Below are positions 28,962 to 43,940 of a DNA stretch of 64,000 nt, piece by piece. The stretch is from a virus. Location: positions 117,466 through 181,465 of IMG/VR virus record IMGVR_UViG_3300045988_076685. One strand, written 5' to 3'. The position numbers were made by a program, and so were the translations under genes. Every line of letters begins with the position of its first letter. Within the stretch, counting starts at the first letter, position 1. Under the pieces are notes generated by a model, which did not search any database, had not been told where the DNA came from, and saw only the letters and a list, made by a program, of their open reading frames with translations.

Positions 28962-29771
28962 TCAGATAACATTAAGCATTGTAACGTTCTCAGGAAGATT
29001 ATCCCAATCTTTGTAAGAATTAGTAAACCATACGTGGTTAAAGTTTTCTGACAGATTCTTTATACCATTAGGATTTACCATATGAGTAACTGCAATATTT
29101 AAACGCTCTTTAGGAATACCTAAAGCATTAAATGCTTTAGCAATACCACAGAAGGTTCCACCACCATCACATAAATCATCAAGAATTAACAGAGATTTAT
29201 CCTGTATACTTTCAGGATTATCTATTTTAATCTCTAAGATTTTCCCAGTAGTTAAATCTCGAACTTTACTACAAGTAATTCCTACGCGATTATATCTGAA
29301 TTCATTTCTCTTTACAGCTCCGGCATCTGGGAAAACTAATTGAAATTCTTTCCAAGTATTATTAGATGGATTCTTTTCACCATAGAGAGGCATAAATTTA
29401 ACTCCGAATCTAGGATCATAATAAACATCAGAATGAGGTTCTAAAATTTCAATAGTCTCTGCATTACAATTTTTTAATATATTTAAGACTATTTTTAAAG
29501 TGAATGGTCTATTGAAATCCATTACTCGGTCCATTCTCATACTCATTAAGTAATAGATATTTAACTTATATAGAACTTCATGTCTATCAAGAATATCTAA
29601 AACTTGCATAAGTATAAATAAGTCTTCAGCATTAGTAACTCTACATTTTACTAATACTTGTTCCTTATGACTGAATTCTTCTAAGGAAATTTGAACTTCC
29701 CCATCAGGAAATCTAAAGATAGAATATTTAATATCACTATTTTCTAAATGTACTAAATTTAATTGTTGCAT
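28962..29771 (-). CDS. ribose-phosphate pyrophosphokinase-like protein (candidate ADPR-pyrophosphate synthetase Adps)
   Basis: 269 aa; Prs-family motifs FPDGEV (cf. FSDGEV), FPDAGAVKR, PRPP-binding loop LILDDLCDGGGTFCGIAKA (cf. VLVDDMIDTGGTLC); shorter than canonical Prs. Confidence 0.6.
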   Translation of the reverse strand: MQQLNLVHLENSDIKYSIFRFPDGEVQISLEEFSHKEQVLVKCRVTNAEDLFILMQVLDILDRHEVLYKLNIYYLMSMRMDRVMDFNRPFTLKIVLNILKNCNAETIEILEPHSDVYYDPRFGVKFMPLYGEKNPSNNTWKEFQLVFPDAGAVKRNEFRYNRVGITCSKVRDLTTGKILEIKIDNPESIQDKSLLILDDLCDGGGTFCGIAKAFNALGIPKERLNIAVTHMVNPNGIKNLSENFNHVWFTNSYKDWDNLPENVTMLNVI

Positions 29772-30253
29772 AATTTATAAATATAAAGAGTCATTGTTGT
29801 ATCATTAGCAAAAAGTTCTTGGAGCATAGGATAAACTACTCCATCCCAATCTCCTCCTGCTAATCCACATCCTAATTTATAAGGAATACCTAGCTCTGTA
29901 ATCTCGTTATTTTCACAAAAGTCTTTTAAATTTAACAAAGCTTTTTTAAGAGCATTATAGTCAGTATGTCTATTTTCATAAGGAGCTACTGATTCAGTAA
30001 AAGAATATTCTCCAAATAAATTAGCTACGAGATTAATAGGTTCATCTCCTGTTATACATACTTGACATTTTCCTAATAATTCTTTAGAATATTTAAGAAG
30101 TTTACAAAAATTAGTATATTGTGTATATACTAAACTCCATTTGTTTTTAATAGATTTAGCTATACCTGCTCCCATTACTCCTAAACAATTAGTTTGATGA
30201 GCTATAAGAGGTAAATTTGATTGGAGTAAATCTCCATCAACAATTTTTATCAT
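29759..30253 (-). CDS. macro-domain protein (TARG1/OARD1-like ADP-ribose processing)
   Basis: 164 aa; N-terminal LIAHQTNCLGVMGAGIAKSI matches the AHC..C.MGAGIA signature of TARG1-type macro domains; overlaps both neighbours by 4-13 nt. Confidence 0.55.
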   Translation of the reverse strand: MIKIVDGDLLQSNLPLIAHQTNCLGVMGAGIAKSIKNKWSLVYTQYTNFCKLLKYSKELLGKCQVCITGDEPINLVANLFGEYSFTESVAPYENRHTDYNALKKALLNLKDFCENNEITELGIPYKLGCGLAGGDWDGVVYPMLQELFANDTTMTLYIYKLCNN

Positions 30254-31803
30254 ATTAATGTTGAATTTACACGTTCACGAATTTCAGAAAGAGAATATTC
30301 TCTTACTAATTCTCCATCTACAAAGACTGTTTTAAGACAACCTTGCAGTTCTGCATCCTTAGTCTGCTGGTCATAAGCGACATACTTGCCATTCTCTTCT
30401 TCAACTCTAATAAGACCTTTGAAAGAGTTCTTTGTTCCATCGTCAGTTTTTGGATGCTTATAGATTTCTATAAGTCTTCCATTAATTATACAAGCAGTTG
30501 CTTTAACTGCGAATCCCAAAGAATCACGAGACTTAAACTGATAAGTATAAGAACCAATACCAAGAACAAGATTACAAGCTGCCATATGAGCATTCTCTAA
30601 TCGAGCATAAATATCACGCTGACGTTCCAGAGTGATAGAATCTCCATAAAGCAATCCTACCTTGGTACTTGGATAACGATAGTCGTTTACAGTAGTATTC
30701 CAGCCAAAGATTTTACCTAGCATATAATATGCTCCATAATACTGACCTTCAGATACTTCTACATAATGACTTTCATCATCATCCATAAATGGATTAAAAT
30801 CACAGTAGTACTTACCCTCTTTCATGGCAGTATGATAGTGAGGATTTGTACGAAGACCACAAATAATATCTACTGGATCACCACTATCAGGGCGAATTAC
30901 TACTCGACCATCACGCTTCATAATATCTGCCTTAAGCTTAGGCAAAAACTTTTCAACTACCTGCCAGAAATCCCAAGTATCAGATACTATTGAGATAATA
31001 CCCGTTGGATATAAGTCATTAATAAGACGACGATATGTTTCAATCTCGTCATCCTCACCTCCTGCACACATTACACTGTGTTCAGTTGCTGGAACAGTTG
31101 CAGCTACAAGTTCTTTAGTAACATCTGCATTGTAATAATGCTCTACTGCTTCAATAGCAGGAATTGTTTCACTACCACAAAATGAAGTCATGTGAGCCAT
31201 ACCCGAAATAATAGCAGCATCAAGTCCAGCCATACCTCTCATAGAAAAATCATGGCAGGCGAAACCTAGGTTTACATCTTCTGGGAATCCAGTCTTTCTA
31301 GCATGTTCCATAAGTCTCTTCTTATAAAGACGAGCACTTGTTGCAGAAGTACAAGGAAGCCATAGAGTACAGCTAATCAAAGTCTCCAAATAATTAGTCA
31401 ACCAGAAGAAGTCCGGAAGAGTATTCTTAATAGTCATCATAGGTACTCTTATAGGACAGATGGAACCTTCAGGAAGAGCTTTAATTTCAATAGGAAGATA
31501 TCCTAAATCATAAAGTTCCTCAATATGCTTTGTTCCAACCTGATTAAGGTCTACAAAGTTACCTACACGATAAGCAAATTGCTTGATAGCTTCTTCCTTA
31601 GGAAGAGCAAACCATTTGTTAAATTCCTCTATTAAATACTTCTTTACAAAGTACTGAATACCAAATACTACAGAACCTTCTGTAGCTTCTGGGAAGTAAC
31701 GATTACTTCTAGGAGTCCAGTTACTATAGACCATTTGTGTACCCTCTGGGTACATACGATGATGACCAAGCTTGTAGCCATCAGTTGCATTAATAATTTC
31801 CAT
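30250..31803 (-). CDS. nicotinamide phosphoribosyltransferase-family protein (NadV/NAMPT-like; candidate nicotinamide-ADPR transferase Namat)
   Basis: 517 aa; N-terminal ATDGYKLGHHRMYPEGTQ aligns with NAMPT LATDSYKVTHYKQYPPNT; size typical of type II PRTases. Confidence 0.7.
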   Translation of the reverse strand: MEIINATDGYKLGHHRMYPEGTQMVYSNWTPRSNRYFPEATEGSVVFGIQYFVKKYLIEEFNKWFALPKEEAIKQFAYRVGNFVDLNQVGTKHIEELYDLGYLPIEIKALPEGSICPIRVPMMTIKNTLPDFFWLTNYLETLISCTLWLPCTSATSARLYKKRLMEHARKTGFPEDVNLGFACHDFSMRGMAGLDAAIISGMAHMTSFCGSETIPAIEAVEHYYNADVTKELVAATVPATEHSVMCAGGEDDEIETYRRLINDLYPTGIISIVSDTWDFWQVVEKFLPKLKADIMKRDGRVVIRPDSGDPVDIICGLRTNPHYHTAMKEGKYYCDFNPFMDDDESHYVEVSEGQYYGAYYMLGKIFGWNTTVNDYRYPSTKVGLLYGDSITLERQRDIYARLENAHMAACNLVLGIGSYTYQFKSRDSLGFAVKATACIINGRLIEIYKHPKTDDGTKNSFKGLIRVEEENGKYVAYDQQTKDAELQGCLKTVFVDGELVREYSLSEIRERVNSTLI

Positions 31804-34305: not shown

Positions 34306-34319
34306 TATAAATAATCTTT

Positions 34320-34718
34320 TTAGTTATGGTATATATCACCACTCATAGTACTAACATTACCACCAACATTACCACAAGTAACATCGCCACTCATTGTTAA
34401 TACTCCACCTTTAACGTCTTTACAGGATACATCCCCACTAGCTGTATTAACAGTTGAAACATCTCCTGTAATTGAGACATCCCCACTATCAGTACGTACA
34501 CTAGCTACATTACCCTCTATTTTCACTTCTATAGATGGACTTTCAAGATCTTCTCTTAAATTTCCATTTACATAAATTTTACCATTATTAATACTGATGG
34601 TTTGTGCTCCTTCTATTTTAATATTGTTAATCCAAGTAGCACCATTAATACCATTTAATGTTGTTTCAATTGTGTTAACTATTCCCATAATATATAAAAT
34701 TTTTAAAAATGTATACAA
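34320..34718 (-). CDS. repeat protein (beta-helix-like SGDV/GNV repeats)
   Basis: 132 aa; C-terminal reiterated motif SGDVSITGDVSTVNTASGDVSCKDV...MSGDVTCGNVGGNVSTMSGD. Confidence 0.45.
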   Translation of the reverse strand: MYTFLKILYIMGIVNTIETTLNGINGATWINNIKIEGAQTISINNGKIYVNGNLREDLESPSIEVKIEGNVASVRTDSGDVSITGDVSTVNTASGDVSCKDVKGGVLTMSGDVTCGNVGGNVSTMSGDIYHN

Positions 34719-35152
34719 ACGAAAAAAGTCGAGCTTATTGCCCGACTCAACATCAGTAAGTACCCCTTTGGTACTTACAAATTAAATAATAAGATTAAAT
34801 CATTGGAGGCATGTATAATCTACAATACTGATTAGCATACCAAGTCCAACCCTTCTTAAATGCTTTTAAAGTTCTTTTCAAAATTTTCATCATAATAAAT
34901 CAAATTTAAAGTTTAACTTATAAAATATCTAGGAGGAGAGTTTAAAAAATTAAGAATCCCAGGTAAATTACCCCTGTTAGAGACAATCTTATGGTCTCTA
35001 TTTTTATTATTTAGGATTCTGTAGGAATGCAAAAAACGTCGAACCATTCCAGTTCGTAGGTTCTACGACACCTAATAGGCGAGTATGCATCGTTGAGAGG
35101 CACCCTATAAGTTACGTTGCTCCTGTGACTAGTATTCTAGAGCTTTGTTATA

Positions 35153-35232
35153 GTGCGAGATGTGGGAATCAAACCCACGCAAGCCTTCTGGTTGGAAGCC
35201 AGATATGCGCCTTCAGCTACACTAATCTCGCA
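35153..35232 (-). tRNA. tRNA-Gly (anticodon UCC)
   Basis: Hand-folded: acceptor GCGAGAU/AUCUCGC, anticodon arm ucugg-cuUCCaa-ccaga, T arm guggg-uuugauu-cccac; variable region slightly long. Confidence 0.6.
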
Positions 35233-35233
35233 T

Positions 35234-35572
35234 TTATTTATAAGATATCTTTCCAACGCATGAAGAATAAGAAATTTGTTTATTATTATTTTCTAATATA
35301 TAATAATAATCCTCAAATGTTTCTTGAATACCTTTAAAAACATATTCTTTATTCATATATCCATCCACGTAACAGGTTTTTCCTACATTAAGTAGTTCTT
35401 CTTTTACCCATTTTGGAGCATCCTCAGGAACATCGTCTACAGAATAATAATTTCCTATTACTTCATACATTAATTTATTTATTAATTGTTGGAAAGTCTT
35501 TATTAAAATAGGAACATCTTCAGTTTTATACTTTAATGTTTCTAAATTGTCTGTATCAATAGTTATTTTCAT
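35234..35572 (-). CDS. hypothetical protein
   Basis: 112 aa ORF between two tRNAs. Confidence 0.4.
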   Translation of the reverse strand: MKITIDTDNLETLKYKTEDVPILIKTFQQLINKLMYEVIGNYYSVDDVPEDAPKWVKEELLNVGKTCYVDGYMNKEYVFKGIQETFEDYYYILENNNKQISYSSCVGKISYK

Positions 35573-35590
35573 AAATATTTAATTTAATAG

Positions 35591-35665
35591 TGGACCACGG
35601 TGGGACTCGAACCCACGACATCTACCTTGCAGAAGTAGCGTTCTAGCCAACTGAACTACGAGCCC
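35591..35665 (-). tRNA. tRNA-like gene, possibly Ala (UGC), acceptor stem imperfect
   Basis: Canonical D arm (GGGCUCGUAGUUCAGUUGGCUAGAACG) and T arm (gugggUUCGAGUcccac); anticodon loop ucUGCaa has C33; 3' acceptor strand CGUGGUC leaves two mismatches. Confidence 0.4.
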
Positions 35666-35675
35666 AAATTGGAGA

Positions 35676-36152
35676 TTACTCTCCAGTTAATTGTTTTATT
35701 TTAAGTTTAGCTTGTGTTAATTTATAGATTAAATCAAATATAGTATTTTTATTATCCTTAAGCTGTTTTCTAAGACCTTTATTAGTTAGTTTCATACTAT
35801 TAAAGTTCTTTAGATTATTTGCTATAGATTCTAATTCTTTAAAAGACTTAGTATCATCAAACAAAGATATATTAACTTTAGCTTGCAATTCTTTAATTTT
35901 AAGTTTTTGTTTTTCAATCTTATCTTCTAAAGATTGAATCTTATTATTTAAAGAATCTATACTAAGTCCATTCTCTAATTCGTCTATATAAGATTCTAAT
36001 TCTCCGATTTTTTGTTCTAGTCCAGCATAATGCTTTTTTCTTTCAGCATCGTACTCTTTAAAACTATTTATTTTTCTTTTTAAGACTGCTATAATAAAAT
36101 CCTTTTTATCATAAAAGTTTGCATCTGATTGATAATTAAAAGTCTCTTTCAT
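35676..36152 (-). CDS. coiled-coil hypothetical protein
   Basis: 158 aa; heptad-rich (LEQKIGELESYIDELENGLSIDSLNNKIQSLEDKIEKQKLKIKELQAKV). Confidence 0.45.
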   Translation of the reverse strand: MKETFNYQSDANFYDKKDFIIAVLKRKINSFKEYDAERKKHYAGLEQKIGELESYIDELENGLSIDSLNNKIQSLEDKIEKQKLKIKELQAKVNISLFDDTKSFKELESIANNLKNFNSMKLTNKGLRKQLKDNKNTIFDLIYKLTQAKLKIKQLTGE

Positions 36153-36174
36153 ATTATTTATTTTTATTAATTAG

Positions 36175-36258
36175 TTGTCTAGGAGAGATTCGAACTCCCG
36201 AAGCTAAATAGCGGCAAATTTACAGTTTGCTGTGGTTGACCACTTCACATACTAGACA
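36175..36258 (-). tRNA. tRNA-Tyr (anticodon GUA), type II
   Basis: Acceptor UGUCUAG/CUAGACA, A73, anticodon arm gcaaa-cuGUAaa-uuugc, long variable arm with gcua-uuu-agc hairpin, T arm gggag-UUCGAAU-cucuc. Confidence 0.75.
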
Positions 36259-36265
36259 ATTTTGT

Positions 36266-36336
36266 TCGGGGTGTGGGAGTTGAACCCACTATTTTCTGCT
36301 TATGAGACAGACGTGTAAGCCGTTTCACTCACCCCA
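36266..36336 (-). tRNA. tRNA-Met (anticodon CAU)
   Basis: Acceptor UGGGGUG/CACCCCG, anticodon loop CUCAUAA, T arm gugggUUCAACUcccac. Confidence 0.6.
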
Positions 36337-36348
36337 AATATAAATAAG

Positions 36349-36421
36349 AGCTTCAAGTAGGATTCGAACCTACGACCTGCACTTTACAAGAGTGCTGCAC
36401 TACCACTGTGCTATTGAAGCT
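36349..36421 (-). tRNA. tRNA-Thr (anticodon UGU)
   Basis: Acceptor AGCUUCA/UGAAGCU, anticodon arm gcacu-cuUGUaa-agugc, T arm guaggUUCGAAUccuac. Confidence 0.75.
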
Positions 36422-36565
36422 AAAATAAAGGCGAATATGGCATTAGACGGGCGAACTATCATGACCATATTCTAATAATACATTGAGCTATCAGGCATAC
36501 TCGTGGATCGCCACCGCTACCTCTAACAACCGCCTAGTTAACAGCTAGGTCCTCTCCATTATTTG

Positions 36566-36642
36566 CGGGGTATAAGGGATTCGAACCCTTAGTTTTACTA
36601 GAGTGACAGTCTAGTTCCCTTACCAACAGGGCTTAATACTCC
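36566..36642 (-). tRNA. tRNA-Asp (anticodon GUC)
   Basis: Anticodon arm cuaga-cuGUCac-ucuag (classic Asp loop), T arm aagggUUCGAAUcccuu; one A-C mismatch in acceptor. Confidence 0.65.
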
Positions 36643-36713
36643 AGGCGCCTCTTGTGTACACATTTCTTTTCGAGAAGGTAGCTAACCTTAGAAATAAGAG
36701 GCATATATTATTG

Positions 36714-36794
36714 CGTCTAGACTGGGATTCGAACCCAGGAACCTTTCGGGGCAAGTTAACAGCTTGCTGCCGTTGACCACTTGGCTATCTAGAC
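36714..36794 (-). tRNA. tRNA with Asn anticodon (GUU) on a type-II, tRNA-Tyr-like body, G73
   Basis: Acceptor GUCUAGA/UCUAGAC, D arm gcc-aaguggucaa-ggc identical in loop to the Tyr tRNA, anticodon arm gcaag-cuGUUaa-cuugc, 12-nt variable arm, T arm cugggUUCGAAUcccag. Confidence 0.6.
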
Positions 36795-36805
36795 GAAAGT
36801 CCTGA

Positions 36806-36961
36806 TTAATCAGGGCACACAGTTGAATCAATTTCAGTAGTATCAACTACTGTGGTATCAACATTAATAGAATCATTTGAAGTTGAATTTACTGAATTAT
36901 TTGAACCAGTAGAACAACTCAAGAGTGTAAATAATACACTAAGTACAAGTAATTTCTTCAT
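36806..36961 (-). CDS. small lipoprotein (51 aa)
   Basis: Hand-translated MKKLLVLSVLFTLLSCSTGSNNS...; lipobox LLSC; opposite strand of spurious plus ORF 36852..37037. Confidence 0.4.
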   Translation of the reverse strand: MKKLLVLSVLFTLLSCSTGSNNSVNSTSNDSINVDTTVVDTTEIDSTVCPD

Positions 36962-37027
36962 TTTTTATTTTCTTTATTGTATTGACTATTATAAATCTAA
37001 ATTTTACTATTCAAAATATAATTTTAA

Positions 37028-37069
37028 TAAAATTTAAAAATGAACCGAGAACTTCCCAATTCTCGGTTC
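37028..37069 (-). terminator. intrinsic terminator
   Basis: Perfect 10-bp stem GAACCGAGAA/TTCTCGGTTC with 8-nt loop, followed on the minus strand by ATTTTTAAATTTT. Confidence 0.6.
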
Positions 37070-37240
37070 TGTGTACTAAGGTAAGTACGACCCTTCCAGT
37101 TTCATGTTGAAATTTTCAAAAAAGTCAGTATATTTATAGATATATACATCTGGGAATCAGGTTAATCATGAAATTCGTAACTATAACAGTCCTAACCCGT
37201 TTGTGATATAAATATAATTTAATTATAAAAATTATAAAAG

Positions 37241-37462
37241 TTAATTTTTGTTTACTTTATTGTTTTTAATTAAATTATTTATTTCTGTTTCTGTGAGTTC
37301 TATCTTGTAATCCCCATAACTTAAAGAATAATTAAAATCAAATAAATAGACAAATTTATTATCTATATATTGAGCACATTGTGGGAGTACACTAATATTA
37401 GTAACTGTAAATTTGATATTGTCTAAGACAATACTTTCATACAATTTAAATTTGCTAGTCAT
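37241..37462 (-). CDS. hypothetical protein
   Basis: 73 aa ORF. Confidence 0.35.
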   Translation of the reverse strand: MTSKFKLYESIVLDNIKFTVTNISVLPQCAQYIDNKFVYLFDFNYSLSYGDYKIELTETEINNLIKNNKVNKN

Positions 37463-37500
37463 AATAAACCAAAAGAGGGAACTCTAAATAGAGTCCCCTC
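37462..37500 (-). terminator. intrinsic terminator
   Basis: Hairpin GAGGGGACUCUAUUUAGAGUUCCCUC followed by UUUUGGUUUAUU on the minus strand. Confidence 0.5.
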
Positions 37501-37627
37501 AAAAGATTGAGTTTCCTTTTAATTATCACGACTATAATTCACGTTTCACAACGTTCAATAAGTATTCCTTATTACTGAGGTTATTATAGTTGTGAATTTT
37601 TTTTCTAAAAATAAAATCTTAAAAATT

Positions 37628-37996
37628 TTAATTCTTAATCATAGCACGAAGTTCTTCGATAGATTTATTCTCAAGAGCCTCGTCCTCCTTCTTTGCGATA
37701 AGCTCAGCAATACGTTTGTTACGAGCATCAACCTGTGCTTTATCAATATTGTCTTTACGAGCCTTTAATTTAATATTGATTACATCTTTTACGATGCTGA
37801 AACGAAGTTCATCATCATTTTCTTCAGCTGGAAGCTCTTCAATGAAAGACTTCTTAGGAGCCTCACTAACTTTCTTATCCAGCATAATAGCTAAAGTGTT
37901 AAGATTCTGCAGAGATAAGTCGAACAAATCTTCTGTAGTAATCATACCCTTGTTTGTCTTAAAACGTAATTTTTTCTGTAATGCTTCTTTGTACAT
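37628..37996 (-). CDS. hypothetical protein
   Basis: 122 aa ORF, GC-richer codon usage. Confidence 0.45.
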   Translation of the reverse strand: MYKEALQKKLRFKTNKGMITTEDLFDLSLQNLNTLAIMLDKKVSEAPKKSFIEELPAEENDDELRFSIVKDVINIKLKARKDNIDKAQVDARNKRIAELIAKKEDEALENKSIEELRAMIKN

Positions 37997-38008
37997 TGTT
38001 GTTAATTA

Positions 38009-40042
38009 TTAAATGTTTACTTTATAAATTTTACCTGAATCTACTCTAACCATAATTTGGTTACGAGAAGTAGCTATAAATCCTAGACCGCTCATCTGAT
38101 TATCATTGTAAGGAGTTAAAGCCTTAGATGCTAATACTTCAAATACCCTCTTATGATTCTTAGTGAGTTCATCTTTAAGATACTCATTAAAATATCCACG
38201 AACAGCATCTGGATTCTTACAATCCTTCAGCATAAAGAAATAGTGCTTAGCACCTACTTTATTATTTCCCCAATAATTTGGAGATAAGCATATAGCAGAT
38301 ACTTCAACGAAGTTCTGAGTCTTTACTCCCCAGATTTCTTTAGATGCTGTAGTACTACTCAAATGCTCCTTAGTAAAGACAACTTCACGTCCATTAGAAG
38401 TAAAGTTTAATACTGGAACATCGCTTTTGTTAGGAACATCTTTGTCATACACATAAGTATGAATAACTCCATTGAGTTCTACCTCTACTTCAAATCCTAA
38501 ATCAATATTCTCAACTTTAGTAAAGTTGTTAACAAATACTTCATATTTACCTGCTTTAGGAATTCCTGAGAAAATGATATTTTCTACAGCGTTACGAGAA
38601 AATTTCTTAGGAATACTACGTTCTGCAGAAGCGCTACCTCCACAGGCATTCATATCTACATCAAGTAAGCCATGTTTGTTATTGTAGCAGACATGTCCAT
38701 AAGGACTTATCATATGTAAATCCAAATCATCGTAATTATACCAATGAAGAGAAATTCTCATATAACCGTCTACTTTACCTCCTACTTCTTTGACACGCTG
38801 CTTAATAGCGTCAGAGATATTACCATTATATGCCCAAGCAAAACCATTAGTCCACTTAAACATAGAAGGAGCTTCCTTATTAACTGGGGCAGTGAGAGTT
38901 ACTAAATTATTATTTAACTTATTGTCAAAGAATAATTCAAGCTTACTAGCCTTAGAAACAATATTATTAAGGAACTCTTCCATAGTTGTTGGAATAGCAG
39001 CCTTCTCAAAATCTGTAGCAGCTTTGCTAGTATTAGTAGTTTCATTCATAAGAGAATCGAATCCTCCTGACATTCTCTTACGAGTTTCTCTATTTACAAA
39101 GATAACATCTTCAATAGATATATCTTCTACTTTAGCATGACGACGCTCTAAAGAATCTTCATAGCCAAGTTCTACTACAGTTTTATAAGCATTTTCTACC
39201 TGAGTTTTGGTGATAATACCCTTAGGTCTCTTATAATTATAAGGAGCAACCATAGCTTCAAACTTCTTAACTGAACTTTCAACATTATTAGTGTCAGTTA
39301 TATCTTTAAGAAGCTGACCTATAGCACTATTAAGTATATGTGTTACAGCATCAGGAAGTATACAAGAAGATATCCAAGCATAATTATCTACCTCAAAACC
39401 TTCCAAATGCTTGCTCTCTATTATATCAAAAGCAGTCTTTAAGGCACTTACTTGACGTAAATAAGTATCACCTCTATAGAGATTATCATCTGCAATTAAG
39501 TCTAATACTGTTTGTACAGAATTATAGTTAAGTTCAGATAAAGTTCTTAACCATACATCATGTGAAGATTTAGCACCTGCACGAAATGTTGGAGTCTGAG
39601 ACTTATCCATAATTAAATTACTTGTAGGAGTAGCATAAAAATGGTTCCAAGTAATTATTTCTTTAGAAGGTAGTATCTGCTGATTGCATTTACAACCCAT
39701 TGTAGTCTCTTCTGTAACAAATGCATTTCTAATTTTAGTATTTTTGAGCACTTGTAACATATTGTCTACAACTTTGGCAAACATTCCTTCAGCATGAACA
39801 TCCTCCCAGTAAGAATGTATTTTATAATTCTCATCTATAGAGACTAGTGCTCCATAGCGAGTAATGAAATGTTTACAATTTACACAGTTAAACTCTTGAC
39901 GTACGGCTCCTTCAGGAAAAGATTCCATATAAGCCATCCATAAAAACTCTTTTTGGGTGTCAAGAATAAAGAGATGTTTGTTCTCTTTAATCATCTTATT
40001 ACATGCTTCTGTAACAAGATTTCTAAAATCTAAGTATTCCAT
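38009..40042 (-). CDS. large hypothetical protein (677 aa)
   Basis: Long uninterrupted ORF; no confidently recognised domain; contains a GGKVDGYMR stretch reminiscent of nucleotidyltransferase motif I but unconfirmed. Confidence 0.55.
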   Translation of the reverse strand: MEYLDFRNLVTEACNKMIKENKHLFILDTQKEFLWMAYMESFPEGAVRQEFNCVNCKHFITRYGALVSIDENYKIHSYWEDVHAEGMFAKVVDNMLQVLKNTKIRNAFVTEETTMGCKCNQQILPSKEIITWNHFYATPTSNLIMDKSQTPTFRAGAKSSHDVWLRTLSELNYNSVQTVLDLIADDNLYRGDTYLRQVSALKTAFDIIESKHLEGFEVDNYAWISSCILPDAVTHILNSAIGQLLKDITDTNNVESSVKKFEAMVAPYNYKRPKGIITKTQVENAYKTVVELGYEDSLERRHAKVEDISIEDVIFVNRETRKRMSGGFDSLMNETTNTSKAATDFEKAAIPTTMEEFLNNIVSKASKLELFFDNKLNNNLVTLTAPVNKEAPSMFKWTNGFAWAYNGNISDAIKQRVKEVGGKVDGYMRISLHWYNYDDLDLHMISPYGHVCYNNKHGLLDVDMNACGGSASAERSIPKKFSRNAVENIIFSGIPKAGKYEVFVNNFTKVENIDLGFEVEVELNGVIHTYVYDKDVPNKSDVPVLNFTSNGREVVFTKEHLSSTTASKEIWGVKTQNFVEVSAICLSPNYWGNNKVGAKHYFFMLKDCKNPDAVRGYFNEYLKDELTKNHKRVFEVLASKALTPYNDNQMSGLGFIATSRNQIMVRVDSGKIYKVNI

Positions 40043-40051
40043 AAAATTTTT

Positions 40052-40089
40052 AAAAGTTAGAAAAGAGGGAGAGATTATTCCCTCCCTCT
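40052..40089 (-). terminator. intrinsic terminator
   Basis: Stem AGAGGGAG...CUCCCUCU (8 bp) followed by UUUUCUAACUUUU on the minus strand, directly after the flotillin gene. Confidence 0.6.
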
Positions 40090-40103
40090 GTGATACTTAA
40101 TGT

Positions 40104-41657
40104 TTACACATTTACATTGGTGTTCTCTACGTCGCCATTAACGTTAACATTCTTGTTAACCTTAGCATCAATAGTGTTAGCCTTCATAATGTCTGCCATA
40201 TCTACACCTGTGGCATCTTTTACAATGTCACGAGTCTGCTTGATAATAGCAGGTACATTACCAGAAATACCAGAAGCCTCAGAACCATTAGTTCCATAAA
40301 CTGTCATACTGCCAATCTTACTCATAGGCTCAGCAATATACTTAGCCATATCAGGAAGAACTTTCTCATTAAGTTTAGAAAGCATGTCAATTACAGCAAT
40401 AGAACCATACTTACTGTATGCTTCAGCCTTCTTCTGCATAGCTTCAGCTTCTGCAAGACCCTTAGCCTTCACACCTTCAGCTTCTGCTAAAAGTTTAGCC
40501 TTAGTACCCTCAGCTTCCGCAGTCAAGGTCTGCTGAGTAGCATATGCTTCAGCTTCACCTTTAGCACGAATACCTGCAGCCTCCTGCTCTTGAGAATAAC
40601 GACTAGCTTCAGCCTTAGCCTTTACAGCTTTAGCTACCTGCTCTGCCTTATAAGCTTCAGCTTCAGCTTCACGTTTCTGCTTCTCCAAAGCAGCCTGAGC
40701 ATCAATCTCTGTCTGATACTTATCAGCATCAGCCTTAGCATTTACATCTGCAAGATACTCATTCTGCTTAATCTTAATCTTCTCCTCAGATAAGGTTTGC
40801 TCCTTACGAGTCTTCTCAATATCAGCATCTACAGTCTTAACATTAATAGTTTTCTGCTGCTCCTGTTGCTGGATTTTATATGCAGCATCAGATTCAGCCT
40901 TCTTAATGTCAGACAATCTCTTCAGTTCAGCTCTCTTAATAGCCAATTCATTATTACGTTCAGCAATAATGGTATCAGCCTTTACTCGTGCCTCATTAGC
41001 TTCATTGTCAGCTTCAGCCTGAGCCTTAGCTACATCTCTATCAGCATTAGCACGAGTAATCTTAGCATTCTTCTGAATAGCTGCTGTATTGTCAGCACCC
41101 AAATCACGGATCAATCCCTTCTCATCAGTAATATTCTGAATATTGCAAGACAAAATCTCAAGACCTAACTTAGCCATATCAGGAGCTGCCTTCTTCTGAA
41201 TTTCATCAGAAAATGCATCTCTATCAGTATTAATTCTAATCAAGTCAAGAGAACCTACTACTTCACGCATATTACCTTCCAAAGAATCTTTTACTTGAGC
41301 AGCAATCTGAGCAGAATTCATATTCAAGAAGTTCTTAGCTGCAAGTCTAGTACCGCCTGTATCAGGTTTTACCCTAACTTTACATACGGCATCTACCATT
41401 ACATCCAAGAAATCATGAGTAGGAACTGGCTGTGAAGTCTTAACATCAACTGTTACTTGACCAAGATATACTTTATCCAATCGTTCAAGTACAGGAATTT
41501 TTACTCCACCACCACCGATAAGTACTCGTGGCTCCTTACGAAAACCTGAAAGAATGTAAGCCATCGAAGGAGGAGCCTTAACATACATTGTAGCAATAAT
41601 AACAAGCAGTACAATAATAGCAACTGCGATAACACCAATAAGAACTAAATGTTCCAT
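40104..41657 (-). CDS. flotillin-like SPFH/band-7 protein (FloT/YuaG-like)
   Basis: 517 aa; N-terminal TM helix, SPFH region (YILSGFRKEPRVLIGGGGVKIPVLERLDKV, TGGTRLAAKNFL), long Ala/Glu-rich coiled coil (AEAEGTKAKLLAEAEGVKAKGLAEAEAMQKKAEAYSKYG), C-terminus AVIDMLSKL...MTVYGTNGSEASG, co-linear with B. subtilis FloT. Confidence 0.75.
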   Translation of the reverse strand: MEHLVLIGVIAVAIIVLLVIIATMYVKAPPSMAYILSGFRKEPRVLIGGGGVKIPVLERLDKVYLGQVTVDVKTSQPVPTHDFLDVMVDAVCKVRVKPDTGGTRLAAKNFLNMNSAQIAAQVKDSLEGNMREVVGSLDLIRINTDRDAFSDEIQKKAAPDMAKLGLEILSCNIQNITDEKGLIRDLGADNTAAIQKNAKITRANADRDVAKAQAEADNEANEARVKADTIIAERNNELAIKRAELKRLSDIKKAESDAAYKIQQQEQQKTINVKTVDADIEKTRKEQTLSEEKIKIKQNEYLADVNAKADADKYQTEIDAQAALEKQKREAEAEAYKAEQVAKAVKAKAEASRYSQEQEAAGIRAKGEAEAYATQQTLTAEAEGTKAKLLAEAEGVKAKGLAEAEAMQKKAEAYSKYGSIAVIDMLSKLNEKVLPDMAKYIAEPMSKIGSMTVYGTNGSEASGISGNVPAIIKQTRDIVKDATGVDMADIMKANTIDAKVNKNVNVNGDVENTNVNV

Positions 41658-41735
41658 AAATTTGTAAATGTTTAAATAATAAAAATTAAATATCTAAGAA
41701 TTAACTGATGTTAATTCCAAGGGGGCATTTATTTT

Positions 41736-42887
41736 TTATAATTCGTAATTTACAAGACCTGTAGCTTTACTTGCAGAATAGCAACTATTAATTATATATA
41801 TTCTAATATATCCATAATCAGTCATAGTTACTACATATTTTTCTTTAATACTTACCATCAATATACGATCATCCTCAAAACGATCTCCAGGTTCCAGATA
41901 TTTTAATTCTTTATCCTCAGTAGTAGAACCGTAATCTTCACTGAACTTAACAGACCATTCGTTATAGAATTTTCTTTCTTCACGAGTGTATTTTTCCCAA
42001 TCTTTCTTTTTAATTTCTTTAAACTTATAAAAAGTTTTTAATATACTCTTTATATTTTCAGGAGTAAATTTCAAGTCACAATGTCTGACTTGTACTTCTC
42101 TATACAAATAAGTAAATCTAGAGAACTCAATATTAAAGGTTTCTTTAATATCAGGAAGAGCTTCCACTCCATGAATATTAATTTCAGTTGCTATAGCCTT
42201 AATTAAGTCTATAGTAATAATATTCATAGAATGAGTTAGCTCTATAACCTTCTCTATAGCAGTTTTATCTTTCAAGATATCGTTAAGAATTTCTCTAGTA
42301 ACTTCCTCGGAAAGATTACTGAAAGACTTTTTATATCTTATTCTAGAAGGTCTACCAAGAAGATTTGGATCTACATTTAACTCATTAGTAGTAAGTAAAA
42401 ATATCTTACGATAAATAGAGTTATAAGTACCATCCATGAAAGAAAGAACATCGGAAGAATTTTTAAATTCTTTCTCATATTCATCAAAGAAGAAAATGCA
42501 ATCAAAATTGATAGTTGTAGATAAATATTTTATTAATTTATCATTAGAATCACCCATTGATTGTACTAAGATCACAGGAAGTTGTAAGTTATTACAAAGT
42601 TCCTTTGCAGTAACTGTTTTACCAGTTCCTTTGATTCCATCTAGCAGAACACCTAAATTACCTGTAGTGTTCTCATATGTCTTTAAGACATAATCAATAA
42701 ATTTTTGGTTTAGACCATACAGTTTGTAATCAAACGTAAAAGACTCAGCGATTTTACTTAAGTAAAATCCAGTCATTGAGACTTTTACTTCATAAATACC
42801 TTTCGGTAATCCTTCAGGATGAGATACTGTTGTCGCACTACCCTGACTAAAAACGTTGCCATCTTGCAACCAAATTTGTTTACCCAT
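41736..42887 (-). CDS. AAA+ ATPase with N-terminal unknown domain
   Basis: 383 aa; Walker A GVLLDGIKGTGKTVTA and Walker B IFFFDEYEK; immediately upstream of flotillin gene. Confidence 0.55.
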   Translation of the reverse strand: MGKQIWLQDGNVFSQGSATTVSHPEGLPKGIYEVKVSMTGFYLSKIAESFTFDYKLYGLNQKFIDYVLKTYENTTGNLGVLLDGIKGTGKTVTAKELCNNLQLPVILVQSMGDSNDKLIKYLSTTINFDCIFFFDEYEKEFKNSSDVLSFMDGTYNSIYRKIFLLTTNELNVDPNLLGRPSRIRYKKSFSNLSEEVTREILNDILKDKTAIEKVIELTHSMNIITIDLIKAIATEINIHGVEALPDIKETFNIEFSRFTYLYREVQVRHCDLKFTPENIKSILKTFYKFKEIKKKDWEKYTREERKFYNEWSVKFSEDYGSTTEDKELKYLEPGDRFEDDRILMVSIKEKYVVTMTDYGYIRIYIINSCYSASKATGLVNYEL

Positions 42888-42992
42888 TTTAATAAATGTT
42901 TAACAATTACTTTAATAAATTTATAAGAATGTCTATGTTGTGTAACATATCATCAATTATTTTAATAGAGTTACTAATATGTCTTTTCATAT

Positions 42993-43850
42993 TTATTTTA
43001 TAGCTCTTAACTTTTTATACTCTTCAAATACTTTATCTTCAGCTTCTTTTCCCCACATAGTATATATCAGTACTCCATAAGGACAATATTGAAATATTAT
43101 TGGATCTACAGCATGAGAAACTATAACTTTCTTTTCTTGTAGATTTGATTTTGGACAAGCTATGAACATATCGTCTCTATGTACATAATGTACTTCTAAA
43201 TAGACTCTTTCAGCCCAGTCCTTATCCTTAAATTCATCTATATCACTCATACGATATAAATAAGCTGGATAAGAGATAATATTAAAACTATAATCAAAGT
43301 ATTCACAAATACTAGAATCACTTTTTTCACTGTGATTACGTATACGTTGGATTTCTACTGTATTATGGTTTGTATCTAATTTCACATAACCAGAGTAATG
43401 GTCCATTTTATACTTTATATCTGAAAACTCCTTTAAGTTAGCATCAGGTATAACTCCAGTAAACTGTTCAAGAAATCCTACAGATAATTTGTATTTATGA
43501 CAAAGTTTATAAAAAGAATCTCTACTAACTAATATAACAGAATCTCCCAAAAACTCATTCATAGTTTTTATGTAATTTAATAACTCACGAGCTTTTATGA
43601 TATTTCTATTATATGCATCAATATCACGTATTCTATCTTTTAAGAATTTAGCATTTGCACTATTACCTAATCCTAAATTACATAATCTGGCATATTCTCC
43701 AGACATATCATTAGACTTTAAAGGAATTAATGCTGTACCTTCTGAAACCCCTACTAAATCTACCGCTAACTTAGATAATTCTTTATCTATAGTTATTAAA
43801 GGTTTCTGTTCTTTTTTGGTTTCTTTTAAAAAATTACTAAAAATTCCCAT
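42993..43850 (-). CDS. hypothetical protein
   Basis: 285 aa ORF upstream of the AAA/flotillin pair. Confidence 0.5.
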   Translation of the reverse strand: MGIFSNFLKETKKEQKPLITIDKELSKLAVDLVGVSEGTALIPLKSNDMSGEYARLCNLGLGNSANAKFLKDRIRDIDAYNRNIIKARELLNYIKTMNEFLGDSVILVSRDSFYKLCHKYKLSVGFLEQFTGVIPDANLKEFSDIKYKMDHYSGYVKLDTNHNTVEIQRIRNHSEKSDSSICEYFDYSFNIISYPAYLYRMSDIDEFKDKDWAERVYLEVHYVHRDDMFIACPKSNLQEKKVIVSHAVDPIIFQYCPYGVLIYTMWGKEAEDKVFEEYKKLRAIK

Positions 43851-43940
43851 AATTAACAGTTAAAATTAAACAAAAATCCCTGAACTATAATAATAGTCCA
43901 GGGATTAAAAACAAATAATAAAAACAGTTCTATGAACTAG

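Follow-up and report, generated by a model that had tools for sequence, protein, structure and literature searches.

This work concerns a flotillin gene carried on a 64,000-nucleotide stretch of viral DNA (positions 117,466 to 181,465 of IMG/VR record IMGVR_UViG_3300045988_076685), here referred to as the window, which represents the replication and auxiliary arm of a human-gut phage of ~180 kb with a GC content of ~30%. Gut Bacteroidales are a plausible host group for this phage. The flotillin gene occupies positions 40104..41657 of the minus strand and encodes a protein of 517 amino acids (aa). Directly upstream, and in the same orientation, are a gene for a 383-aa AAA+ ATPase (41736..42887) and an open reading frame (ORF) for a 285-aa protein (42993..43850). 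The block is bracketed by two terminator-like hairpins with T-runs, both on the minus strand, one located directly 3' of the flotillin stop codon (40061..40088) and the other following a transfer-messenger RNA (tmRNA) gene (43875..43906). An initial annotation had proposed these three ORFs and both terminators, all of which were confirmed, and had suggested that the block may be an acquired host membrane-remodeling or protease-modulating module in which the flotillin is coupled to the ATPase. As described below, the first part of this interpretation held, as the flotillin is a Bacteroidales-derived gene that has been maintained in the phage, while its coupling to the ATPase and the 285-aa protein as a functional operon was not supported.

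As had been predicted, the protein is a full-length flotillin with an N-terminal anchor, an SPFH/Band 7 domain, a coiled coil, and a C-terminal Flot domain. Pfam matches were obtained with Band_7 (PF01145; residues 28-206, E = 9.3e-22, 78.4 bits against a cut-off of 23.6) and with Flot (PF15975; residues 380-466, E = 8.4e-11, 42.5 bits against a cut-off of 27). The N terminus is hydrophobic over residues 4-22, with a 19-residue Kyte-Doolittle maximum of 3.59, and AlphaFold2 predicts a helix at residues 2-24. Residues 201-420 are composed of 22% Ala, 14% Glu, and 14% Lys, and long helices are predicted at residues 182-273 and 293-446, in a model with a moderate predicted local distance difference test score (pLDDT) of 61 that ranges from roughly 60 to 80 over most of the SPFH domain. 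The same four-part architecture is found in cellular flotillins, including those of Bacteroidales, FloT/YuaG of Bacillus subtilis, and human flotillin-1/2. In a phmmer search of PDB sequences, human flotillin-1 was matched with an E value of 1.9e-43, compared to 1.7e-07 for QmcA and 1e-4 for stomatin. The top structural matches of the model in a Foldseek search were likewise the flotillin complexes 9bq2 and 9l3g (6.4e-21 for 9bq2_B), with HflK/C following at 2e-12 and the HflK/C-FtsH structures 7wi3 and 9cz2 being among the matches. The closest solved structures are hence flotillins and not stomatin, HflK/C, or prohibitin. The score obtained with the NCBIfam FloT model NF058507 (258.3 bits) is below the equivalog cut-off of 700 bits, and we therefore regard the protein as a member of the flotillin family and not as a FloT orthologue. 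It further differs from its cellular counterparts in being phage encoded and in belonging to a clade of its own.

Virus-encoded SPFH proteins have been noted before and are likewise membrane proteins; one such family, PHROG 200, matches the flotillin at 2.9e-10, and 28 predicted viral structures in BFVD match it at an E value of ≤0.001. However, most of these viral proteins are short (250-340 aa), resemble stomatin or HflK, and are mostly <25% identical in structural alignments, and a full-length alignment was obtained with a single BFVD entry (473 aa), whereas the protein described here is a full-length flotillin with a Flot domain and is very close to the host proteins. SPFH proteins have been reported in genome and virion studies of Vi01-like and Erwinia jumbo phages (PMC10892097, PMC6034870), and the annotation "flotillin family protein" is already present in phages KIT04 and csAssE-Sib; the phrases "phage flotillin" and "viral flotillin" were absent from the papers that our literature search listed. 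Consistent with the earlier statement that flotillins are rare in phage genomes, a flotillin match was found in 11 of 50,697 deposited phage records, with at least 80% of the protein being covered in 5 of these 11. Full-length flotillins are rare in deposited phages and recurrent in large gut phages, and a profile-based scan of IMG/VR identified 40 viral contigs with a flotillin, ranging in size from 6.6 to 413 kb.

To place the gene among its relatives, the window proteins were mapped onto 190 fetched loci (designated by L numbers). Among GTDB species genomes, the best 80 of 463 stretches matching the flotillin all belong to Bacteroidota and nearly all to Bacteroidales, with 56-69% identity; these include Paludibacteraceae, Prevotella, Alloprevotella, and Alistipes. 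In neighbor-joining trees, the window flotillin falls into a clade that was recovered in 200 of 200 bootstrap replicates, in which identity extends down to ~75% and which includes the flotillin of L147, 76% identical and located in a different genomic context, whereas other phage flotillins are placed outside this clade (0-18 of 200 bootstraps). When 31 viral and 80 bacterial flotillins were placed in one tree, the two groups were interleaved with at least seven Fitch parsimony changes, implying at least seven exchanges. Within the window lineage, the ratio of nonsynonymous to synonymous divergence (dN/dS) of the flotillin is 0.05-0.11, with synonymous divergence (dS) reaching up to 1.1. In a comparison with L020, the dS of the flotillin is 0.61 and that of the neighboring genes is 0.51-0.86, and these similar values favor vertical co-inheritance with a stronger constraint on the flotillin. 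The flotillin is a Bacteroidales-derived gene that is carried by the phage and maintained by strong purifying selection; with its best cellular matches in the plausible host group, a patchy occurrence in related phages, and this signature of selection, it shows the hallmarks of an auxiliary gene ("moron").

It is extremely improbable that the gene is a recent, functionless passenger from the host. In favor of a passenger, the flotillin gene has a GC content 10 points above the phage average, as the initial annotation had pointed out (40.0%, with the remainder of the window at 30.1%), and its location is in a variable island. However, the excess is found mainly at codon position 1 (56%), while the GC content at the third codon position (GC3) is shifted toward phage values, with 28% for the window gene and 15% for its L001 counterpart. 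For comparison, GC3 is 16-22% for most genes neighboring the flotillin (32% for a 122-aa gene) and 32-89% for the tabulated bacterial flotillin homologues, at least 43% if two low-GC contigs are set aside. Taken together, the excess at the first position and the low GC3 indicate that the raised GC content mostly reflects the amino acid composition of an Ala/Glu/Gly-rich protein. The GC content of the flotillin also exceeds that of its flanks in 23 of 25 other viral flotillin loci, usually by 6-13 points. The dN/dS values given above, the depth and full support of the phage clade, and a best cellular identity of only 69% among the best 80 GTDB stretches likewise argue against a passenger, and the phylogeny that had been called for did not place the protein within host flotillins as a recent acquisition. 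High GC content as a sign of recent transfer was in this way considered and ruled out by the codon position analysis.

The relation between the flotillin and the AAA+ ATPase was assessed by comparing gene order and gene integrity among relatives. In all 15 IMG/VR loci of the window lineage, the order is the 285-aa gene (present or absent), AAA+, flotillin, DUF8224, and genes for 122- and 73-aa proteins, and the AAA+ and flotillin genes are adjacent in each of them as well as in L004. A different picture emerged from three ENA contigs of 116-193 kb (L001 to L003), in which the flotillin is 91% identical to that of the window and whose exact flotillin sequence is present on 16 contigs. In these, the AAA+ gene is a pseudogene in which the start codon has changed from ATG to ATA, codon 72 is followed by a stop, and approximately residues 100-360 are missing through an internal deletion, with a C-terminal remnant still being recognizable. 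The same contigs have also lost DUF8224 and the beginning of the 122-aa gene, while the flotillin and its terminator are intact, so that in L001 the terminator has been kept alongside the flotillin with both flanking genes deleted. When this flotillin is compared with that of the window, dN/dS is 0.052 at a dS of 1.09. The L001-type genomes thus constitute a natural knockout, in which selection on the flotillin persists without the ATPase.

The converse arrangement, an ATPase without a flotillin, is seen in a sister lineage comprising 17 loci on contigs of up to 225 kb, in which the ATPase is 51-55% identical to that of the window. It is preceded by the tmRNA in 16 of these loci (not in L054), and the two genes 5' of it are recognizable in 13 of the 17, with 66-100% identity per matched segment, yet the 8 kb downstream of the ATPase contain neither a flotillin nor DUF8224 or the 122-aa gene in any of the 17 loci, and no sister-lineage contig was among the flotillin matches of the profile-based scan. 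Only L043 was inspected closely among the sister loci; here, synteny with the window extends down to the AAA+ gene, and a lipoprotein gene follows directly 3' of the ATPase stop codon; this gene maps to window positions 34312-33887, where synteny resumes. This break indicates that the window lineage carries an island of ~7.4 kb downstream of the AAA+ gene (34313..41735 on the minus strand, as delimited by tblastx of L043 against the window). Loci L057 to L062 also contain the ATPase and no flotillin. Conversely, when the 6 kb around the flotillin were inspected in 25 other IMG/VR loci, the ATPase, DUF8224, 122-aa, and 285-aa genes were absent from all of them, and the same was true of phage-like contigs L005, L065, L147, and L148 and of phages KIT04 and csAssE-Sib. 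Among deposited phages, the 40 best-ranked of 390 records with an ATPase homologue do not overlap with the 11 flotillin-matching records, save for MT835492.1, a human fecal phage that is itself a relative of the window (93% identical). Based on these sequence comparisons, the adjacency of the two genes appears to have arisen by insertion and to represent gene order, not functional coupling.

It is therefore very improbable that the 285-aa protein, the AAA+ protein, and the flotillin form one module, in which an SPFH scaffold would be coupled to a non-protease AAA+ machine. Such a module would fit the shared orientation of the three genes between the two hairpins and the constant adjacency within the lineage, and there is a precedent in HflK/C-FtsH, where an SPFH protein of the same fold acts with an AAA protein and whose structures are among the matches listed above. 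However, the neighboring ATPase does not contain a protease domain according to Pfam, the SPFH protein is of the flotillin type, and the pairing is not conserved: neither the L001 to L003 pseudogene, nor the 17 sister loci, nor the 25 other viral loci, nor the deposited records agree with it. The proposed conservation of the three-gene block was also not borne out, as the 285-aa gene is full length in only 3 of the 15 lineage loci and missing from most close relatives. The apparent "SPFH plus non-protease AAA+" operon does not represent a new system but a gene order specific to this lineage, and with this, a misleading lead is removed.

No other partner gene was evident. Across 80 Bacteroidales loci, no conserved flotillin neighbor was found (at most 9 of 80 loci share one), and none was found across the phage loci. 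In this regard, the SPFH-NfeD operons, such as QmcA-YbbJ and yuaF-floT of B. subtilis, are similar to the phage locus in having a bacterial-type SPFH protein, of which QmcA was matched in the search described above, but no NfeD match was detected by Pfam among the immediate flotillin neighbors that were scanned, and the Bacteroidales homologues also do not have a conserved neighbor. Some individual neighbors were noted. In L148 (6001-9559), the flotillin is followed by genes for a Bax1-I/YccA-family membrane protein, release factor RF-1, and PTH2, and in L147 (8001-10660), it is followed by a gene for an OmpA domain protein. In L005, L147, and L166, a YqeY domain gene is located at a distance of 0.2-4.4 kb from the flotillin, and L177 has one within 6 kb. 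L065 is a 380-kb flotillin contig labeled "MAG: Clostridia bacterium" by NCBI; it has flanks of 27% GC and genes for a phage lysozyme, a dCMP deaminase, and a NUDIX protein among dense unannotated ORFs, and it looks like a mis-binned jumbo phage.

With the ATPase set apart, we consider it probable that the flotillin is a stand-alone, host-mimicking auxiliary gene, whose product would supply or boost host membrane organization and stability during infection. According to this proposal, the gene would have been captured from Bacteroidales long ago, its synonymous sites would have drifted most of the way to phage composition, and it would have been kept under strong purifying selection since then. 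The N-terminal hydrophobic segment would anchor the protein in the inner membrane, and oligomerization via the coiled coil would form an SPFH dome at its cytoplasmic side, as suggested by homology to the assemblies of flotillin (9bq2 and 9l3g), HflK/C, stomatin, and prohibitin. The phage protein may assemble alone or mixed with the host flotillin, and its 56-69% identity to the latter makes such a co-assembly possible. By supplying or boosting membrane organization and stabilization, it would keep the membrane and membrane-dependent complexes functional until programmed lysis.

Several points weigh against this proposal. The spacer between the AAA+ and flotillin genes is 78 nucleotides and is without a strong terminator, and the two genes are therefore probably cotranscribed here; in addition, their adjacency is unbroken in the 15 lineage loci and L004. 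The loci span only 6-10 kb on either side, and the L001-type genomes may have another ATPase copy outside of this range. The flotillin trees are based on neighbor joining only, with a simple distance correction, and contigs from IMG/VR and metagenomes are taken to be viral on the basis of gene content and composition, in some cases only provisionally. Our literature search found no functional study of a phage flotillin, and the physiological role is one that we purely infer.

The coiled coil of close relatives of the flotillin has been shortened by independent in-frame deletions, each 40-95 residues long (P0024, P0025, P0026, P0028, P0029, P0031, and P0032, the last being from L004), which is a further difference from cellular flotillins. 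These deletions are not the same in all relatives but correspond to window residues 215-309, 265-355, 307-346, or 333-410. They would alter the height or size of the cage if the proteins assemble like cellular flotillins. Bacterial flotillins remain poorly understood, and these variants offer natural probes of how the size of an SPFH cage is set.

A broader version of the proposal, which we put forward only tentatively, is that large phages of gut Bacteroidales have acquired flotillins convergently as a class of auxiliary genes, which selection maintains and which the phages use to build or stabilize a specialized inner-membrane domain. The dN/dS of ~0.05 and the repeated capture by unrelated large gut phages suggest that membrane scaffolding limits the reproduction of Bacteroidales phages. 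Such a domain could serve long infection cycles by acting against premature lysis or membrane-targeting abortive infection, or it could organize a membrane-bound replication or assembly site, and the coiled-coil length variants could tune the size of the cage.

Membrane remodeling or protease modulation by the flotillin, both of which had been raised initially, is possible. With regard to the latter, HflK/C is known to enclose FtsH, and the flotillins of B. subtilis are genetically linked to FtsH; in addition, tmRNA tags proteins for degradation, and the Bax1-I/YccA family is a substrate and modulator of FtsH in E. coli. It is conceivable that the phage flotillin modulates host proteolysis by caging or sequestering FtsH or a related protease, perhaps together with the phage tmRNA. 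The presence of HflK/C-FtsH structures among the fold matches is consistent with such a role, and there are circumstantial hints in the tmRNA located 2.3 kb upstream and in the Bax1-I/YccA-family gene 3' of the flotillin in another phage-like contig. Nevertheless, we consider this unlikely, as the sister lineage has the tmRNA without a flotillin, terminators part the tmRNA from the block, the protein is closest to flotillin-1/2 and not of the HflK/C type, and no protease-related neighbor is conserved across the phage loci.

A role in conflict with other phages or with host defense, either in superinfection exclusion or in protecting the membrane against membrane-disrupting abortive-infection effectors, seems even less likely. 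The location of the gene in a variable accessory island is typical of conflict genes, and its repeated capture by unrelated large gut phages would also fit. Moreover, DynA, a membrane-remodeling protein, was reported to alter the outcome of phage lysis in B. subtilis (PMC8844932), which provides a precedent. However, the flotillin had no match among the PADLOC defense models, conflict genes are not usually as conserved as a dN/dS of 0.05 implies, and the high identity to host flotillins argues that housekeeping biochemistry has been retained. The auxiliary membrane function proposed above hence remains the explanation that we prefer.

As for the ATPase itself, it is a backbone gene of this phage group and belongs to the classical AAA clade. 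The upstream AAA+ ATPase and the Walker motifs that had been recognized initially were confirmed by a match to Pfam AAA (PF00004; residues 80-184, E = 1.6e-10), and the motifs include Walker A (GIKGTGKT), Walker B (FFFDEYE), sensor 1 (TTN), and a second region of homology (GRPSR). Residues K90, D135, E136, N168, R179, and R182 are invariant in seven homologues with identities down to 27%. The family profile matches p97 D2 at 4e-16 in a PDB profile search, with NSF, Cdc48, and Rpt also being matched. The Pfam scan did not reveal a peptidase domain, M41 being the one sought, and a membrane anchor was not looked for. No conserved aromatic-hydrophobic-Gly motif of pore loop 1 is visible between Walker A and Walker B, as judged from the sequence alignment alone. 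The protein matches PHROG 2376 at 1e-50, and its homologues in the 390 deposited phage records come from phages of many hosts; in a separate listing, all 120 homologues are at least 94% identical. With PADLOC, only weak IetA-like P-loop matches were obtained.

The AAA+ gene of five relatives is interrupted directly after GIKGTGK, between the GK and T codons of Walker A (window position ~42618), by an insertion (L010, 5080-6387; L011 and L023, 7727-9034; L013, 2636-2964; and L017, 8707-9034). It is either 1,308 nucleotides long with an ORF for a LAGLIDADG homing endonuclease or 328-329 nucleotides long without an ORF, the exons around it are in different frames, and the short form has a folding z-score of -5.5. 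Due to the shift in exon frame, the LAGLIDADG ORF, and the folding score, the insertion looks like a self-splicing P-loop intron; an Rfam scan did not return a group I or group II intron match. The copy in the window does not contain the insertion. In addition, the AAA+ gene is truncated by frameshifts in the sister-lineage contigs L055 (8001-8099) and L061 (8001-8612), and it seems to be dispensable in some phages unless these are assembly errors, which is a caveat that applies to the apparent frameshifts in relatives generally.

Downstream of the flotillin are a gene for a 677-aa DUF8224/PHROG 1735 protein (38009..40042), the second gene of the variable island, and a gene for its conserved partner, a 122-aa PHROG 2018 protein (37628..37996), which is followed by another terminator-like hairpin (37475..37500), all on the minus strand. 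We considered whether the AAA+ protein works with these two proteins, the flotillin having merely landed between them. In Bacillus phage Emiliahah, DUF8224, a homologue of the 122-aa gene, and an AAA+ homologue (BLASTP 4e-20, with the N-terminal domain included) are found in this order, the three genes flank the flotillin in the window lineage, and both AAA+ and DUF8224 are destroyed in L001 to L003. On the other hand, DUF8224 is not found within 8 kb of the ATPase in the sister lineage and L057 to L062, and no such ATPase is located within 5 kb of DUF8224 and the 122-aa gene in Serratia phage 3M and phiCbK. Among deposited phages, the two families are largely associated with different host genera, and DUF8224 appears to be disrupted in L009, L013, and L022 despite an intact ATPase. 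We therefore regard a partnership between these proteins as doubtful.

The DUF8224 protein matches 522 deposited phage records, with 36-42% identity among the best-ranked matches listed, and had no match in a PDB sequence search. Paired with a PHROG 2018 gene of ~125 aa, it occurs in Serratia phage 3M (Ackermannviridae), phiCbK, and a Bacillus Herelleviridae phage (L006 to L008). Within the lineage, its gene looks disrupted in several members, by a nonsense codon at E299 in L009, by frameshifts in L013 and L022, and by the deletion in L001 to L003. Besides the flotillin, DUF8224, and the 122-aa and 73-aa genes, the island contains small ORFs and seven tRNAs (35153-36794). At the corresponding position, L043 (9150-15279) has a different gene set, and its genes, as read by eye, resemble those for a lipoprotein, an acyl carrier protein, two TerD-like proteins, and an 819-aa P-type cation ATPase.

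The 285-aa ORF is an accessory gene that is variably present. In agreement with its initial description as an unknown, it had no match in Pfam, PHROGs, NCBIfam, or PADLOC, and the 120 listed of its 516 homologues are all unannotated. It is full length in L009, L011, and L018, present as remnants in L010 and L016, and absent from the other 10 of the 15 lineage loci, and its dN/dS is 0.33. An AlphaFold2 model based on 23 homologues of 76-95% identity was unusable (pLDDT of 53, predicted template modeling score of 0.34). Further upstream, the phage tmRNA (43938..44272, minus strand; Rfam score of 66 bits compared to a gathering score of 47) encodes the tag ARVINMTPAYQAAA. Among the 15 lineage IMG/VR loci, 13 have it 5' of the AAA+ gene (all but L010 and L020), as does L004, and it is 83-98% identical across the relatives of both lineages.

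Terminator-like sites are enriched in this region, with 10 being found compared to 2.5 ± 1.5 in shuffled sequences. No such enrichment was observed for sigma-70-like promoter sites (43 compared to 43.7 in shuffles) or for the Bacteroides -7 motif TAnnTTTG (77 compared to 88.9), and a flotillin promoter could not be assigned from either scan.

Identical or near-identical copies of the window proteins are present on contigs of ~180 kb from many samples. The window encodes a DNA ligase, a Dda-like helicase, NrdD (an anaerobic ribonucleotide reductase), a DnaB-like helicase, and NAMPT, as well as 17-18 tRNAs in addition to the tmRNA, and a single strand carries all listed ORFs of at least 250 aa, all tRNAs, and the tmRNA. 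The NAMPT-type nicotinamide phosphoribosyltransferase, which by coincidence has the same length as the flotillin (517 aa), is encoded near a protein with a weak phosphoribosyltransferase domain match (28962-31803, minus strand), which suggests that the two form a phage NAD+ salvage module. The tRNAs of the window are on the minus strand throughout and include a tRNA-Tyr with the unusual anticodon ATA, which was identified by ARAGORN at positions 63907-63990 (minus strand) and has an Rfam tRNA score of 52 bits.

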